A DNA stretch of 64,000 nucleotides from the IMG/VR virus record IMGVR_UViG_2630968395_000002; one strand, 5' to 3'. This DNA comes from an uncultured virus (IMG/VR IMGVR_UViG_2630968395_000002). Its lineage: Duplodnaviria; Heunggongvirae; Uroviricota; Caudoviricetes. The position numbers and the translations under genes are program-made. Below, piece after piece: positions 1,199 to 48,888 of the stretch; the stretch's first letter is position 1; each line of letters begins with the position of its first letter. The notes below the pieces were generated by a model, which saw nothing but the letters and a program-made list of their open reading frames with translations, made no database searches and had not been told where the DNA came from.

Positions 1199-2248
1199 TT
1201 AGATTGCCTGGTCTAACAGCGCCTCAATTTGGGCATCCGTCATACCGGCAAACATGGCCTGTAGCTGATCAGGCGAAGCATTAGCAGCTTGCTCCAAAGG
1301 TGAGGCCGTATGAATTGTTGTTACCCCAAGATCTGACGGTGAGCTAGGTACTTGCGTCGCCGCAGTTGCAGCAGCCAATTTCTCAGCGGCAATCCGTTGA
1401 ACATCTGAGTTGGTCGTCGTGGCGGTGGTTGTCGTAACCTGCTCTTGTTGAGCCGATTCACCGTAGGCGGCCTTGGTGCGTTTCGCGACTTCCACAAAGC
1501 GCTCAGTTAAAGACTTATCTTTCCATGCAGGGTCATTTTGCAGATTAGTATCAATGTGTACTGCCAGTGTGAAACGGTCAGGATCTTGGTCCTGCCATGA
1601 CTTCAGGTCAGGTACAGCATTCATGGCATCCATTACTGGGTTGCCGTTCGTGACCGGTGCTGGCTGACTCTGCTGCAGGTAATCGATTTTCTGCACCATC
1701 GTGTCCAGCACTGCCGCCATCTCGGGGAAACTATCGCGTATGGCATCGATTTGTTCAGGTGTAACCTGAGCCTTCTCAGGTAATGGAGCAGGTTGCATAC
1801 CAGCGAAGTTGATTTGTCGGGTCAACGCCTCAAGCTGGCGCTTTGTATCAGCTAACTCAGTTGCAGCTTGCTGATTGGACCCTGCCAAACGCTGTTTTTC
1901 TGCCCGCTCGGCCACCAGCACGTCGTAAGGAATAACGTGCTGACCATCTTTGCTGAGAATGCCTTTCGGTTTCTCAGAACCTTCAGTGGTTGCCGCTTGC
2001 GTGGTGGCTGTCGTTTTAGTGATCGGCACTTCAGTGACTTGTGCTGTAGTCGTCGCGCCCGGCGTCAGCTCGTCTTTCTTATCGCCCGTATTTACTACTG
2101 CTGCACTTGCATCGTTAGTAACAACAGTAACGGGCGTAGTCGTAACCGCTGCTGTCTGTGTTACATCAGAAATATCCACATCACCAAATCCATCGATTAG
2201 CGCTTCCAACTCTTCTGGCGTTTCATTACCTGTTAATTCAATGTCCAC
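1199..2248 (-). CDS. Probable capsid scaffolding protein
   Basis: 349 aa acidic, Thr-rich, coiled-coil protein between portal and capsid genes. Confidence 0.7.
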   Translation of the reverse strand: MDIELTGNETPEELEALIDGFGDVDISDVTQTAAVTTTPVTVVTNDASAAVVNTGDKKDELTPGATTTAQVTEVPITKTTATTQAATTEGSEKPKGILSKDGQHVIPYDVLVAERAEKQRLAGSNQQAATELADTKRQLEALTRQINFAGMQPAPLPEKAQVTPEQIDAIRDSFPEMAAVLDTMVQKIDYLQQSQPAPVTNGNPVMDAMNAVPDLKSWQDQDPDRFTLAVHIDTNLQNDPAWKDKSLTERFVEVAKRTKAAYGESAQQEQVTTTTATTTNSDVQRIAAEKLAAATAATQVPSSPSDLGVTTIHTASPLEQAANASPDQLQAMFAGMTDAQIEALLDQAI

Positions 2249-45320: not shown

Positions 45321-46358
45321 TTATTCCTCGCTTATCAGTTCATAAGGCTTGAACCGGATCACCTCTTCCCCTATCCAGTCATTCACCTCCTTCAATCGTT
45401 CTTGCAACGGCGTTAACTCGTTACGAACAAACACTTGTGAGGCTTTTCCGACGTCACCGAAACCACCGGTATTGTTGGGAATAATCCCCATCATCTGTGG
45501 CGGCACCCGGTGCACACTGAGCAGGTCGTCACGGGTGGCGTTCTTGATATTAAAAAAATCATCCTTGGTGGCGACTTCGCTCAACGGTAAAATCTGGATA
45601 CCGTCTTTCTTGCCATTGGGCGCGTACATAAACAGGTTGCGAAAATTGCCTAACCCTTTAGTGTCACGCATGGCTTTACGCATCGCCTCAATATCGCTGC
45701 TGCTTTGCGCCGCATCAGTCATATACAGGATGTAGCCCGCGTGAGCACCGTTCTGGTAATACTTGCGGCGGAATAGCGTGGCCGCTTCATTGAGCCAGGC
45801 AGAATTTAAGCCGCTGAGGTATTCCGGCAGGCCGTAAAGCTCCTGATTAATATCCGGTTCTATCAGATGGAAAACGCTACCGGTTTCAAACAGGTGTTCA
45901 TTTTTCCAGTTTTGAACAAACCAATAACAATCTTTCTCTAACCCACGGCGGGTGTACTTGGCCGGGCTGGGGTCGAGGCGCAGTGGCGCGCCCAACTGGT
46001 TACGACGTACTTCTAAAAACGCATTACCGAACACCAGATAATCCAGTGCATAGCGGCTAAAAGCCTGCTGACTGAGCATTGGGTGAGGGGTAAATGTGCT
46101 TGCCAGTATGTTGCGTTTCACATACAGCGGTGAGCTGTGATGTACCGCCGCACGGAAGCTGCGCGCCAGCCCGTCAAAGCTGATCGGCGGGTCATACCAC
46201 TTGCCGTTACCGGTGCATTCGATGTAATCCAGAATTTCCCGCTTATCGAGCACGGCGGAGGGTTCGCCAAAAGTGAACGCCTCCACCGGTTGCTGTTGAC
46301 TGGCGGTGTGATTGGTTGCTGGTCGGCTTAATGCCTTGCGGCCTTTGCGTTTACTCAT
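45321..46358 (-). CDS. Q: Portal protein gpQ
   Basis: EAFTFGEP...HHSSPLYVKRN...YYQNGAHAG. Confidence 0.95.
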   Translation of the reverse strand: MSKRKGRKALSRPATNHTASQQQPVEAFTFGEPSAVLDKREILDYIECTGNGKWYDPPISFDGLARSFRAAVHHSSPLYVKRNILASTFTPHPMLSQQAFSRYALDYLVFGNAFLEVRRNQLGAPLRLDPSPAKYTRRGLEKDCYWFVQNWKNEHLFETGSVFHLIEPDINQELYGLPEYLSGLNSAWLNEAATLFRRKYYQNGAHAGYILYMTDAAQSSSDIEAMRKAMRDTKGLGNFRNLFMYAPNGKKDGIQILPLSEVATKDDFFNIKNATRDDLLSVHRVPPQMMGIIPNNTGGFGDVGKASQVFVRNELTPLQERLKEVNDWIGEEVIRFKPYELISEE

Positions 46359-47119
46359 TTTACTTCCCCTGCATTGCTTGCCGCTTGTGACCAGTCACAT
46401 AAATATAAGAGATTGAAATCATCTATTGTCATGTGCTTTTTCAGCCAATCTTTACCCCAGTTCTTTTCCCATAACGTACAGCCTTGCTGAATGGCAGCAT
46501 CAGCCGTGACCGATTGACGGAATACGCCATCAGCGCAAAAAACGCCGTTATCCGTGTGTATCACCGGTGCTACTTTTCGTGGGCGGCGCAGTGAGCCGTT
46601 CCAAATCTTGAACGCGGTATTTGAGTGGGAGGGCGTGGTGTAGAGTGTTAAACGATGATTTTTGTGCATTGCCATCCCCTTAGCCATGTGCAGTATTGAA
46701 CGTGGGTTTTTAGCCCATGCATATTCACCCAGGTACACATTCCCAGCATGAGCGGCGGCGTGACTGTTTTCCCCGTGAAAGGCGATGAGCGCGCCATTAC
46801 CTAGCAACATGTTACTTGGCGAGAATGAACTCACGTTTACCCCAACTACCCGACAAAACTCTGCAAGATAAGCGCGGGTATTCAGGGCGCTACTTCTGGA
46901 GCAGGTTAAAAAATGCTGATTGCGGCCGGTGGTGATGGCATCCAGTAACGCTTCAAAAGCGAAAAGCCAGTCGGCCCCAATCTGGCGCGATTTGGTGAGA
47001 CTGCGGTCTGTGCTGGTCTGCCCCACGTGATACCACGTTTTCTGATAATCAAAGGCCGAGTTTTCGAAATGTTCGCGCAGGCCGTCAAGCTGACCAGCAG
47101 TAAAAGTCATTGGCTTCAT
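46355..47119 (-). CDS. Terminase ATPase-domain paralogue with degenerate Walker B
   Basis: KSRQIGAD and EALLDAITTGRNQ match gpP; VYLGEY versus LYLDEY; no HTH or nuclease domain. Confidence 0.85.
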   Translation of the reverse strand: MKPMTFTAGQLDGLREHFENSAFDYQKTWYHVGQTSTDRSLTKSRQIGADWLFAFEALLDAITTGRNQHFLTCSRSSALNTRAYLAEFCRVVGVNVSSFSPSNMLLGNGALIAFHGENSHAAAHAGNVYLGEYAWAKNPRSILHMAKGMAMHKNHRLTLYTTPSHSNTAFKIWNGSLRRPRKVAPVIHTDNGVFCADGVFRQSVTADAAIQQGCTLWEKNWGKDWLKKHMTIDDFNLLYLCDWSQAASNAGEVK

Positions 47120-48888
47120 TGGTAAAACTCCAAGAAATTAGGGCTGTGACCGCCATATGTCGCGGTAAGGGGTTCATTTAACAGGGCATGCATAATCGCC
47201 CACGCCACATCGGCGTGGCTGGCTTCTTCGCTGCGGCTGGCAACATAAGTCGAGCTTTTGCCGCTGGCGGTCATGGTTTTGCGAATGGCCATAAAGGACT
47301 GGGTGATGTCGGTGTGGCCGGTGTCATATTCCAGGCGGCCGTTATTGATGGTGTGCTTGGCTTTCAGCACCATGGCGGTCTTGATTTCAGGGGTGTATTT
47401 GATTTCCCTTGCTGCCGGGAAGAACTGGCGCACCAACTGGAAAACGCCTTGGCCGACGGTAGTGGCATCGATACCGATATACTCCACGCAATATTTCTGC
47501 GTCAGCTCTTCGATATGTTTGGCCTGCGCCTCAAAGTCCATCCCTTTCCACTGGTGGCGTTCCAGTACGCGGAACTTGCCGCCCGGCACCATCGGCGGTG
47601 CAATCACCGCACACCCGGCGCTGTCGCCGCCGTTGGCCTCGGACGGGTCGTAACCAATCCACACCGGGCGATGCCCAAATGGCCGCAACGAATACGGGTT
47701 GTAGTCCTCCCACTCTTCCAGACTGTCCACCATGCAAGCCTGCAACTCGGCGAACGGGAAGACGGACGCTTGATCGTCAACAAATTCGCACATCAACAGG
47801 TTTTGATATTCTGACGGGCCGTATTCCAGTGAGAGCTGGTTGAGGTCAAACAGGTTACAGCCGCCCGCCAGTGCATCCTCAACCGTGACAATCTGCCGCC
47901 ACTGACCATCATCACACAGCGCGCCACGGGCTAAATGGCTGTGGCTGAGATCCAGTTGGATATGGTCGGATTTATTGCGGCGGCCTTTATTGAACAGCTC
48001 ACCAGACCAGAACGGATAGGCACTGTGCGCCAGACTCGACGGGGTGGAGAAATAGGTGGTACGCCATTTCTTGTGTAATGACATGCCGCTGGCGACTTTG
48101 CGCAGTTCCTGAAACTTGGGGATCCAGAAATATTCGTCAAGATAGAGATTGCCGGTGTAGCTCTGCGCCGTACGGACGTTAGTACCGAGAAAGAACAGGC
48201 GCGCCCCGTTCGGTAACACCATCGGGTCGCCTTTCAGGTCAACGTCAACCATCCGGGCGAAGTCGATAATGTAACTTTTGAACACGTGCGCCTGTGCTTT
48301 GCTGGCGGACAGAAAAATCTGATTACGGCCTGTTGTGATGGCATCCAGTAACGCTTCACGGGCAAAGAAGAACGTTGCGCCAATCTGCCGTGATTTCAGG
48401 ATATTGCGGATACGGTGAGTTAACCCGGCCTCAAACCAATTACGCTGATAATCAAAGATATTTTCATGAAATATCGACTCCAGCTTCTCAATCGCCGACT
48501 CACTAAACAGGTTTTTGTCCGGCGTCTTGCGCTCCCCTTTGTTGCGGTTCGCCACTGCCGGGTTTAAGTCGGCCTCACTGCCGGTCTGGTTATAACGGTT
48601 CACCCGCGCCAGCCGTTCAATCTGGCGGCCTAACAGGTCAATCTCTTTAAAATCCCGCCCCTCTTTGGCGTCTTTCATGATGAGCTGAATTAACCGCGCT
48701 TCCATGCTGGTTTCCACCCGAGAAATGGGCGCAATGGCATCCCACCCGTCGCGCTTCTTCCAGCTCTGCACAGTCGGCGATTTCAGGGCCAGCGTGTCCG
48801 CAATCTGGCGCACAGAAAAGCCTTGCCAGTAAAGCAAGGCCGCCTGTCGCCGTGGGTCGCTGATAATGGTGCTCGGTGTCGTATTCAT
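47116..48888 (-). CDS. P: Terminase ATPase subunit gpP
   Basis: 590 aa; KSRQIGAT, LYLDEY, YFSTP, GYDP, HADVAWA. Confidence 0.96.
   Translation of the reverse strand: MNTTPSTIISDPRRQAALLYWQGFSVRQIADTLALKSPTVQSWKKRDGWDAIAPISRVETSMEARLIQLIMKDAKEGRDFKEIDLLGRQIERLARVNRYNQTGSEADLNPAVANRNKGERKTPDKNLFSESAIEKLESIFHENIFDYQRNWFEAGLTHRIRNILKSRQIGATFFFAREALLDAITTGRNQIFLSASKAQAHVFKSYIIDFARMVDVDLKGDPMVLPNGARLFFLGTNVRTAQSYTGNLYLDEYFWIPKFQELRKVASGMSLHKKWRTTYFSTPSSLAHSAYPFWSGELFNKGRRNKSDHIQLDLSHSHLARGALCDDGQWRQIVTVEDALAGGCNLFDLNQLSLEYGPSEYQNLLMCEFVDDQASVFPFAELQACMVDSLEEWEDYNPYSLRPFGHRPVWIGYDPSEANGGDSAGCAVIAPPMVPGGKFRVLERHQWKGMDFEAQAKHIEELTQKYCVEYIGIDATTVGQGVFQLVRQFFPAAREIKYTPEIKTAMVLKAKHTINNGRLEYDTGHTDITQSFMAIRKTMTASGKSSTYVASRSEEASHADVAWAIMHALLNEPLTATYGGHSPNFLEFYQ

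Follow-up and report, generated by a model that had tools for sequence, protein, structure and literature searches.

The question raised by this locus is why a P2-like phage should carry a second, shortened terminase gene directly beside its complete one. The window (the whole stretch of DNA that was analysed, 64,000 nucleotides of the IMG/VR virus record IMGVR_UViG_2630968395_000002) represents a P2-like Yersinia prophage in which an extra gene lies between the gene of the DNA-packaging enzyme (gpP) and that of the portal protein (gpQ). The original prediction, made from the sequence alone, took this gene as a dead paralogue of the terminase ATPase domain and proposed that it acts as a decoy for terminase-sensing immunity, as a packaging regulator or as an anti-satellite factor. 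We found that the gene is almost certainly a Yersinia-clade member of the family of gene W of phage 186, and it is therefore referred to as W in the following. As an accessory gene, W belongs to a family that is known but uncharacterised, and the best overall explanation, to which we assign a probability of roughly 0.45, is that of a 186 W-family cassette acting as a binder of the packaging machinery.

The gene, its nucleotide-binding motifs and its two neighbours are located in the window as follows:
46355..47119, minus strand: W-type gene, a 254-residue stand-alone paralogue of the large-terminase ATPase domain (open reading frame (ORF) list, BLASTP, Pfam, tblastn, AlphaFold2 (AF2)/Foldseek)
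47042..47053, minus strand: F23-D-Y-Q26 motif of W, upstream of the P-loop (conservation of Q26 in the W and P alignments)
46970..46993, minus strand: P-loop of W with the deviant Walker A K43-S-R-Q-I-G-A-D50, in which Asp replaces the Mg-binding Thr of gpP (sequence, alignments)
46721..46738, minus strand: Walker B region of W, V128-Y-L-G131-E132-Y, with Asp changed to Gly and the catalytic Glu kept (sequence, alignments)
47116..48888, minus strand: gpP homologue, a full large terminase of 590 residues with helix-turn-helix (HTH)/Terminase_5, ATPase and nuclease domains (Pfam; canonical KSRQIGAT and LYLDEY)
45321..46358, minus strand: gpQ homologue, portal protein of 345 residues (Pfam Phage_portal; phrog_68 portal, E 2.1e-170)

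Relation of W to the large terminase

In a BLASTP comparison, W and the gpP of the window shared 88 identities over 226 positions (39%, E 1e-47), with residues 6-220 of W aligned to residues 128-350 of gpP. The predicted relation to the gpP ATPase domain thus lies far beyond chance, and the motifs FDYQ, KSRQIGA, EALLDAITTGRNQ, NGA and TPS all fall within the alignment. The two substitutions that had been reported, Thr to Asp in Walker A and LYLDEY to VYLGEY in Walker B, were likewise read in both sequence and alignment. By Pfam, W contains Terminase_6N only (66.1 bits at a cut-off of 22), whereas gpP contains Terminase_5/HTH (residues 11-68), Terminase_6N and the Terminase_6C nuclease domain (residues 411-571). 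Both Pfam and the alignment showed W to lack the N-terminal Terminase_5/HTH region as well as the Terminase_6C nuclease, its sequence stopping at the linker, in agreement with the predicted loss of these two domains.

The AF2 model of W (pLDDT 86.2, pTM 0.86) had as its best Foldseek match the ATPase domain of T4 gp17 (E 3.3e-7, TM score 0.61-0.66), and further matches were to other large-terminase (TerL) ATPase domains (D6E, Sf6, P74-26). The W profile gave no match to the PDB by sequence at E <= 0.01, and NCBIfam has no model matching W. With TerL of the P2 gpP type, W shares the homology of the ATPase domain, the adenine-binding Gln, the Lys, Arg and Gly of the P-loop, the catalytic Glu and motif III; missing from it are HTH/Terminase_5, the nuclease, the Walker B Asp, the Walker A Thr and the SASKxQA and GTN..TAQS motifs. 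Judged by its sequence, W is not a large terminase itself, having neither nuclease nor HTH and an altered Walker B. A split or frameshifted gpP was rejected as an explanation of W, as the complete gpP of 590 residues stands upstream of it in the window.

Assignment to the phage 186 gene W family

W was compared by tblastn with a database of 50,697 phage records, of which 489 matched at 512 places. Amino-acid identities were 86-88% to the Yersinia phages vB_YenM_201.16 and vB_YenM_56.17 (201.16 and 56.17 in the following), 46.7% to W of phage 186 (E 1e-61) and 45-49% to PSP3 gp2, SW9, SI22, EtG, Midge and BIS20, compared to 38-39% for the gpP type of the window. A second place of match occurred in 17 of the 60 best rows and in ten distinct phages, which are 201.16, 56.17, 186, PSP3, SW9, SI22, EtG, Midge, BIS20 and vB_YpM_MLG42.

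In the record of phage 186 (U32222), a coding sequence (CDS) at 1215..1961, encoding 248 residues and annotated as "W protein; similar to Orf12", is flanked by the P homologue, Orf12, and the Q homologue, Orf2; the W label is placed on both CDSs of this record. GenBank notes describe PSP3 gp2 as 'similar to 186 W' and EtG_02 as 'similar to bacteriophage 186 W protein'. The order P, W, Q was also found in 186, PSP3, SW9, EtG, 201.16 and 56.17, whereas in P2 itself P runs straight into Q. The background on which the original prediction had relied, that in P2 and 186 alike P is directly followed by Q, was therefore correct for P2 but not for 186, where W lies between the two, and the gene is not a novelty but a homologue of 186 gene W and PSP3 gp2. 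At the W loci in IMG/VR, Q was found downstream in 21 of 21 cases and P upstream in 20 of 21. In one IMG/VR locus (L087), W and Q are intact and no upstream gpP reading frame of at least 150 residues was found, and in another (L083) the gpP frame stops at 527 residues; both may represent broken terminases or assembly errors.

In a quick IQ-TREE phylogeny of ATPase cores, a single branch (SH-aLRT 100) separated all 22 W sequences from the 60 P proteins. A profile hidden Markov model search with 26 W sequences against 1.84 billion representatives yielded 611 matches at E <= 1e-3. A tree was calculated from 106 representatives, namely matches covering at least 200 profile positions with lengths of 300-539 residues and 11 near-duplicates excluded, and it contained a W clade of 28 rows, short proteins only, with a support of 96. 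On these trees, the W family has a single origin. The possibility that W is a recent duplicate of the adjoining gpP was rejected, as W falls outside all sampled P lineages; given its faster rate, the age of W is unreadable from the trees.

W of the window resembled 186 W more than it did any full-length TerL, occupies the slot between P and Q, consists of the ATPase domain only and falls within the size range of about 225-260 residues. It differs from 186 W in not being canonical at Walker A and Walker B, which marks it as a member of a variant subclade and does not exclude it from the family. The W proteins of Eganvirus (186, PSP3 gp2, SW9, SI22, EtG_02, Midge, BIS20) share with it the P/Q slot, the overlapping junctions, the restriction to the ATPase domain and the common clade. 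In contrast to these, which carry the canonical KSRQIGAT and YLDEF, the window clade has KSRQIGAD and YLGEY; in addition, 186 W has 248 residues and window W 254, and window W is attached to a different gpP lineage. The genes of 201.16 and 56.17 are direct orthologues with the same junctions and the same Walker changes and show no difference of substance. They have been deposited as a second 'terminase, ATPase subunit GpP' (UNA05963.1 and UNA05908.1, respectively). Within the searched portion of PMC9224151, no discussion of a second GpP was found, and a search for the word 'terminase' led to a single passage on another subject. Text searches for 186 W within a limited literature collection returned no paper discussing gene W.

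Short ATPase-only paralogues of TerL also occur in metagenomes. They are likewise stand-alone proteins, of about 220-285 residues, but form separate clades outside the 28-row W clade (P0042, P0044, P0059, P0072, P0080, P0094, P0095, P0104, P0106, P0115, P0119, P0127, P0139, P0148, P0149, P0154), and many of them have a degenerate P-loop or degenerate catalytic residues. Two terminase features in KC618326 (L069, 'Escherichia phage P2' from an O157:H43 strain) were considered as a candidate for W and rejected as a split gpP: here gpP is annotated as two overlapping CDSs, likely due to a frameshift. The same record carries a gene for cytolethal distending toxin subunit A a few genes from the portal gene.

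Selection on W and its presence and absence among relatives

The borders of W and the translation signals at these borders are the following:
47116..47119, minus strand: ATGA overlap of the gpP stop and the W start, upstream edge of the cassette (sequence and junction alignment of W-bearing 201.16 and W-less 31.17)
46355..46358, minus strand: ATGA overlap of the W stop (TGA) and the gpQ start, downstream edge of the cassette (sequence and junction alignment)
47128..47131, minus strand: GGAG Shine-Dalgarno sequence of W within the last gpP codons, 8 nucleotides before the W ATG (sequence, junction alignment)
46363..46369, minus strand: GGGGAAG Shine-Dalgarno sequence of gpQ inside the C-terminal codons of W (..A-G-E-V-K) (sequence, junction alignment)

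As had been stated, W is intact and coupled by ATGA to both neighbours. The ratio of nonsynonymous to synonymous substitution rates (dN/dS) was determined by NG86 on aligned codons. For the Yersinia-type genomes (10 genomes, 45 pairs), dN/dS was 0.24 for W, 0.03 for P and 0.026 for Q at a median dS of 0.25-0.37; for the 186-type (13 genomes, 76-78 pairs per gene), the corresponding values were 0.15, 0.047 and 0.03 at a median dS of 0.25-0.30. The Yersinia-type W protein accordingly changes about eight times faster than P and Q, while dS is similar. No stop or frameshift occurred in W across the 23 genomes of this comparison, and every copy of W found was open, with no pseudogenised copy among them. 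The results demonstrate that W is under purifying selection, as the original prediction had argued from its intact frame; neither pseudogenised homologues nor a dN/dS near 1 were found.

W is also patchily distributed. In 50 genome loci P is full-length; it is followed directly by Q in 46 of them and by W in four, and within the clade of window-type gpP (10 rows) five have W and five pass directly from P to Q. Phage 31.17, which lacks W, has a gpP that shares 98.5-99.2% identity with that of the W-bearing genomes. The junction alignment showed that the difference between W-plus and W-minus phages is exactly one gene, from ATGA to ATGA, and that the GGAG at 47128-47131 serves gpQ in the W-less relatives. 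Phages 31.17 and 06.16-2, both lacking W, appear as plaque formers in the host-range table of PMC9224151. W is thus dispensable in the window-type clade, in which natural W-less relatives exist with near-identical P and Q.

GC content at third codon positions (GC3) was lower in W, with 0.53 in the window and 0.48-0.53 in five genomes, compared to 0.64-0.68 for gpP and 0.58-0.64 for gpQ, which hints at a different history or expression level. In the tree, subtypes of W are attached to different gpP lineages. The exact boundaries, the patchy presence, the lower GC3 and the distribution of W subtypes over different gpP lineages are consistent with W being a cassette that is exchanged among P2-like phages.

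A third W subtype of 241 residues (KxRxAGAD and YVSEY) was found after other gpP lineages, in L046, L054, L067 (vB_YpM_MLG42), L091, L110 and L140 (IMG/VR); L046 and L054 represent two genus-level genomes. Three further loci (L047, L048 and L059) have near-identical gpP but lack this subtype, a second independent case of presence and absence.

The 7-mer GGTCACA occurs about 30 nucleotides upstream of both ATGA junctions (46386-46392 at W/Q and 47147-47153 at P/W, minus strand). The pair may be a leftover of duplication, a microhomology for gain and loss of the cassette, or chance. A 31-codon ORF overlapping the gpP start is annotated in 201.16 (L001, 5067-5162) and 56.17 (L064, 1140-1235), and no such ORF is annotated in the stretch of 31.17 that was inspected.

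At the borders themselves, protein and nucleotide constraints coincide. The C-terminal GEV of W is kept across W types because it embeds the Shine-Dalgarno sequence of gpQ. As the conserved C-termini of both W (..AGEV..) and gpP (..LEF..) encode the Shine-Dalgarno sequence of the next gene, part of the protein-level conservation at these positions is a nucleotide-level constraint. This bears on whether W might be a near-neutral passenger, that is, a selfish or leftover duplicate which is kept only because an imprecise deletion would break the coupling to the portal gene. The natural dispensability of W is in line with such a passenger, and the embedded ribosome-binding site of gpQ explains part of the C-terminal conservation. 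However, dN/dS values of 0.15-0.24 over whole genes with open frames throughout 23 genomes speak against it, the strongest conservation lies in the nucleotide pocket, far from the junctions, and exact W-less junctions exist, so that a clean loss would be easy. A passenger role is therefore regarded as highly improbable.

State of the active site

Nine residues are invariant in 26 aligned W proteins (Q26, R39, K43, R45, G48, E132, W135, T158 and S164). At the position of Q26, Gln was the top residue in P (98% of 60 representatives) as well as in GAD-type W (all 16) and 186-type W (all six); we take the FDYQ motif to correspond to the adenine-binding YQ motif of T4 gp17, which is likewise located upstream of the P-loop. 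Among five Yersinia-type W proteins, residues 121-140 contained none and residues 41-60 two of the 62 variable sites in total, and the nucleotide pocket thus contains the least variable 20-residue blocks of W.

The residue pairs at Walker A +1 and Walker B were counted in 79 distinct short sequences matching a P-loop/Walker B pattern, from which degenerate sequences had been dropped beforehand. The pairs and their counts were as follows:
Thr/Asp: 33
Asp/Ser: 21
Asp/Gly: 18
Asp/Pro: 2
Asp/Ala: 1
Ser/Asp, Asn/Asp, Ser/Pro and Ser/Ser: 1 each

The Walker B Asp was accordingly present in none of the 42 sequences with an Asp in Walker A and in all 33 with a Thr, and the catalytic Glu was retained in 42 of 42 Asp-type sequences. 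Loss of the Walker B Asp is thus conserved in all 42 Asp-type sequences, with Ser, Gly, Pro or Ala in its place, but does not extend to the 186-type, which keeps the Asp. The 106-representative tree allows all Asp-type sequences to be placed in a single clade with one change (support 79), and the strict pairing may for this reason trace back to a single event. Asp50 was found in all 16 representatives of the Asp-bearing clade, whose terminal branches are about 0.4-1.75 changes per site long except for three near-identical Yersinia-type rows, and this long retention argues for a function. Non-canonical Walker residues occurred in 27 of 46 short representatives (16 with the Asp swap, 11 degenerate) and in none of the 60 full-length ones, all of which are canonical, although these counts are not phylogenetically independent. 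Compared to the 60 full-length representatives, W has lost the P-invariant motifs SASKxQA and GTN..TAQS together with the Walker B Asp.

The designation of W as dead is therefore only partly justified. The Walker B Asp is gone, but the pocket is the best conserved part of the protein, the new Asp shows no exception among the 16 representatives of its clade, and the 186-type is fully canonical. From these sequence features, W is probably a nucleotide-binding, hydrolysis-impaired protein.

Alternatively, W could be a rewired working ATPase in which the Mg carboxylate has moved from Walker B to Walker A +1, turning the Thr/Asp pair into Asp/Ser or Asp/Gly, and which, like its canonical 186-type sisters, would actively assist the packaging motor as an auxiliary ATPase or as a nucleotide switch. 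The strict Walker A/B pairing and the retention of the catalytic Glu in 42 of 42 Asp-type sequences and of Asp50 in 16 of 16 are consistent with such a rearrangement. In the canonical Walker motifs, Thr and Asp form a hydrogen-bonded pair, and the commonest partner of the new Asp, Ser, would yield its mirror image. On the other hand, the pairing may reflect one historical event and subsequent retention (one clade, support 79), the counting pattern drops degenerate sequences, W of the window has Gly and not Ser, and two related representatives (P0141 and P0152) carry Ser at both positions. Taken together, a rewired active ATPase appears unlikely.

Possible role of W in packaging

In the explanation that we favour, W is a stand-alone copy of the TerL ATPase domain, inserted as an exact one-gene cassette between P and Q, and would share one late mRNA (the late P operon) with gpP and gpQ, being translated via the overlapping ATGA junctions. 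It is predicted to retain the TerL ATPase fold and, probably, nucleotide binding. With HTH, nuclease, SASKxQA and GTN..TAQS lost, W should be unable to bind the small terminase or to cut or translocate DNA. It would thus act through binding, as a subunit without motor function and probably impaired in hydrolysis, which may dock on the gpP ring and/or the portal via the surfaces of its ATPase domain, and may tune packaging in a condition-dependent, non-essential manner. This mechanism of a binding, accessory subunit is offered tentatively, as something short of an even chance.

Several points weigh against it. Nucleotide binding of W is deduced from conservation only. The hydrolysis-impaired state is assumed because loss of the Walker B Asp in T4 gp17 reportedly abolishes ATPase activity in mutagenesis. 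Two W proteins of the 186-type, PSP3 gp2 (L006) and that of an IMG/VR contig (L090), have Asp in place of the catalytic Glu (YLDDF), which suggests that hydrolysis may not be required even in the canonical subtype. The letter name of 186 W presumably points to a conditional-lethal gene, and if W is essential there, a dispensable tuner would not hold for all clades; an essential 186 W, if true, would favour a core role in the 186 clade, although amber polarity on the coupled portal gene could explain such a lethality, if real. Finally, the patchy presence among phages with near-identical P and Q, the roughly eightfold amino-acid rate and the low GC3 would also fit a conflict gene.

Two kinds of conflict were considered. 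In the first, which takes up the decoy of the original prediction, W would be a terminase mimic that displays the TerL ATPase surface to sensors of the Avs1-3 type and soaks up or blocks them, the activating contact not being completed as W has no nuclease domain and an altered Mg site. Avs3 senses the active sites of both terminase domains, ATPase and nuclease. W has kept the TerL ATPase fold, and a chain of an Avs3-terminase complex (8dgc_E) was among its Foldseek matches, as it would be for any TerL. In addition, its patchy occurrence (four of 50 loci with full-length P), faster evolution, different composition and exact cassette borders are typical of accessory conflict genes. However, nothing in our data ties W to any defence system; no family of PADLOC-DB matched it at E <= 0.01, a result that says nothing on anti-defence roles. 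W is also a late product that shares its mRNA with gpP and is made in similar amounts, so that only weak titration would be expected. Moreover, a look-alike might activate the sensor instead of blocking it, and a pure surface decoy would not need the strong conservation of the nucleotide pocket. We consider a mimic of this kind to be a rather doubtful alternative. The small defence protein TerI, which targets terminase according to 10.1101/2025.02.27.640495, is not a TerL paralogue and provides a loose analogy only.

In the second, W would interfere with competitors by poisoning the terminase rings or the portal docking of co-resident P2-like prophages or of satellites that exploit the packaging machinery of a helper, while being tolerated by its own gpP; P4 is a satellite for which phage 186 can serve as a helper. 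Genomes often contain several P2-like terminases, with, e.g., up to four matches per genome. Moreover, W is devoid of motifs that are invariant in 60 of 60 P (SASKxQA, GTN..TAQS and the Walker B Asp), and a subunit of this kind would be expected to stall the ring. Yet W lies in the late operon and is co-expressed with the gpP of its own phage. W-less relatives have a gpP 98-99% identical to this one, and no co-adapted resistance is visible in gpP. Interference with competitors is thus thought to be quite unlikely. A combined scenario, in which the Asp-type W would represent a natural swapped P-loop that functions as a working, re-tuned switch and is carried as a mobile cassette for conflict, either shielding the terminase from host sensors or jamming rival motors, and not for routine packaging, also seems improbable.

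Implications for the W family

Gene W of phage 186 was entered into the databases in the 1990s and has had no mechanism assigned to it since; the window adds a well-sampled sister clade to it. The analysis contributes selection figures for two subtypes, the exact boundary of the cassette, the census of W-less relatives and the strict Walker A/B pairing, and it shows that two conserved C-terminal stretches, GEV in W and LEF in gpP, constitute the ribosome-binding site for the gene that follows. Phages with and without W occur naturally whose terminase and portal are about 99% identical, and together with the clean boundary and a paired substitution that is easily reverted they offer handles on the function of W. 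If W binds the packaging motor, it would represent a rare case of a viral ring ATPase that is regulated by a cut-down paralogue of itself; if it rather is a decoy or a jammer, it would define a new class of terminase mimic.

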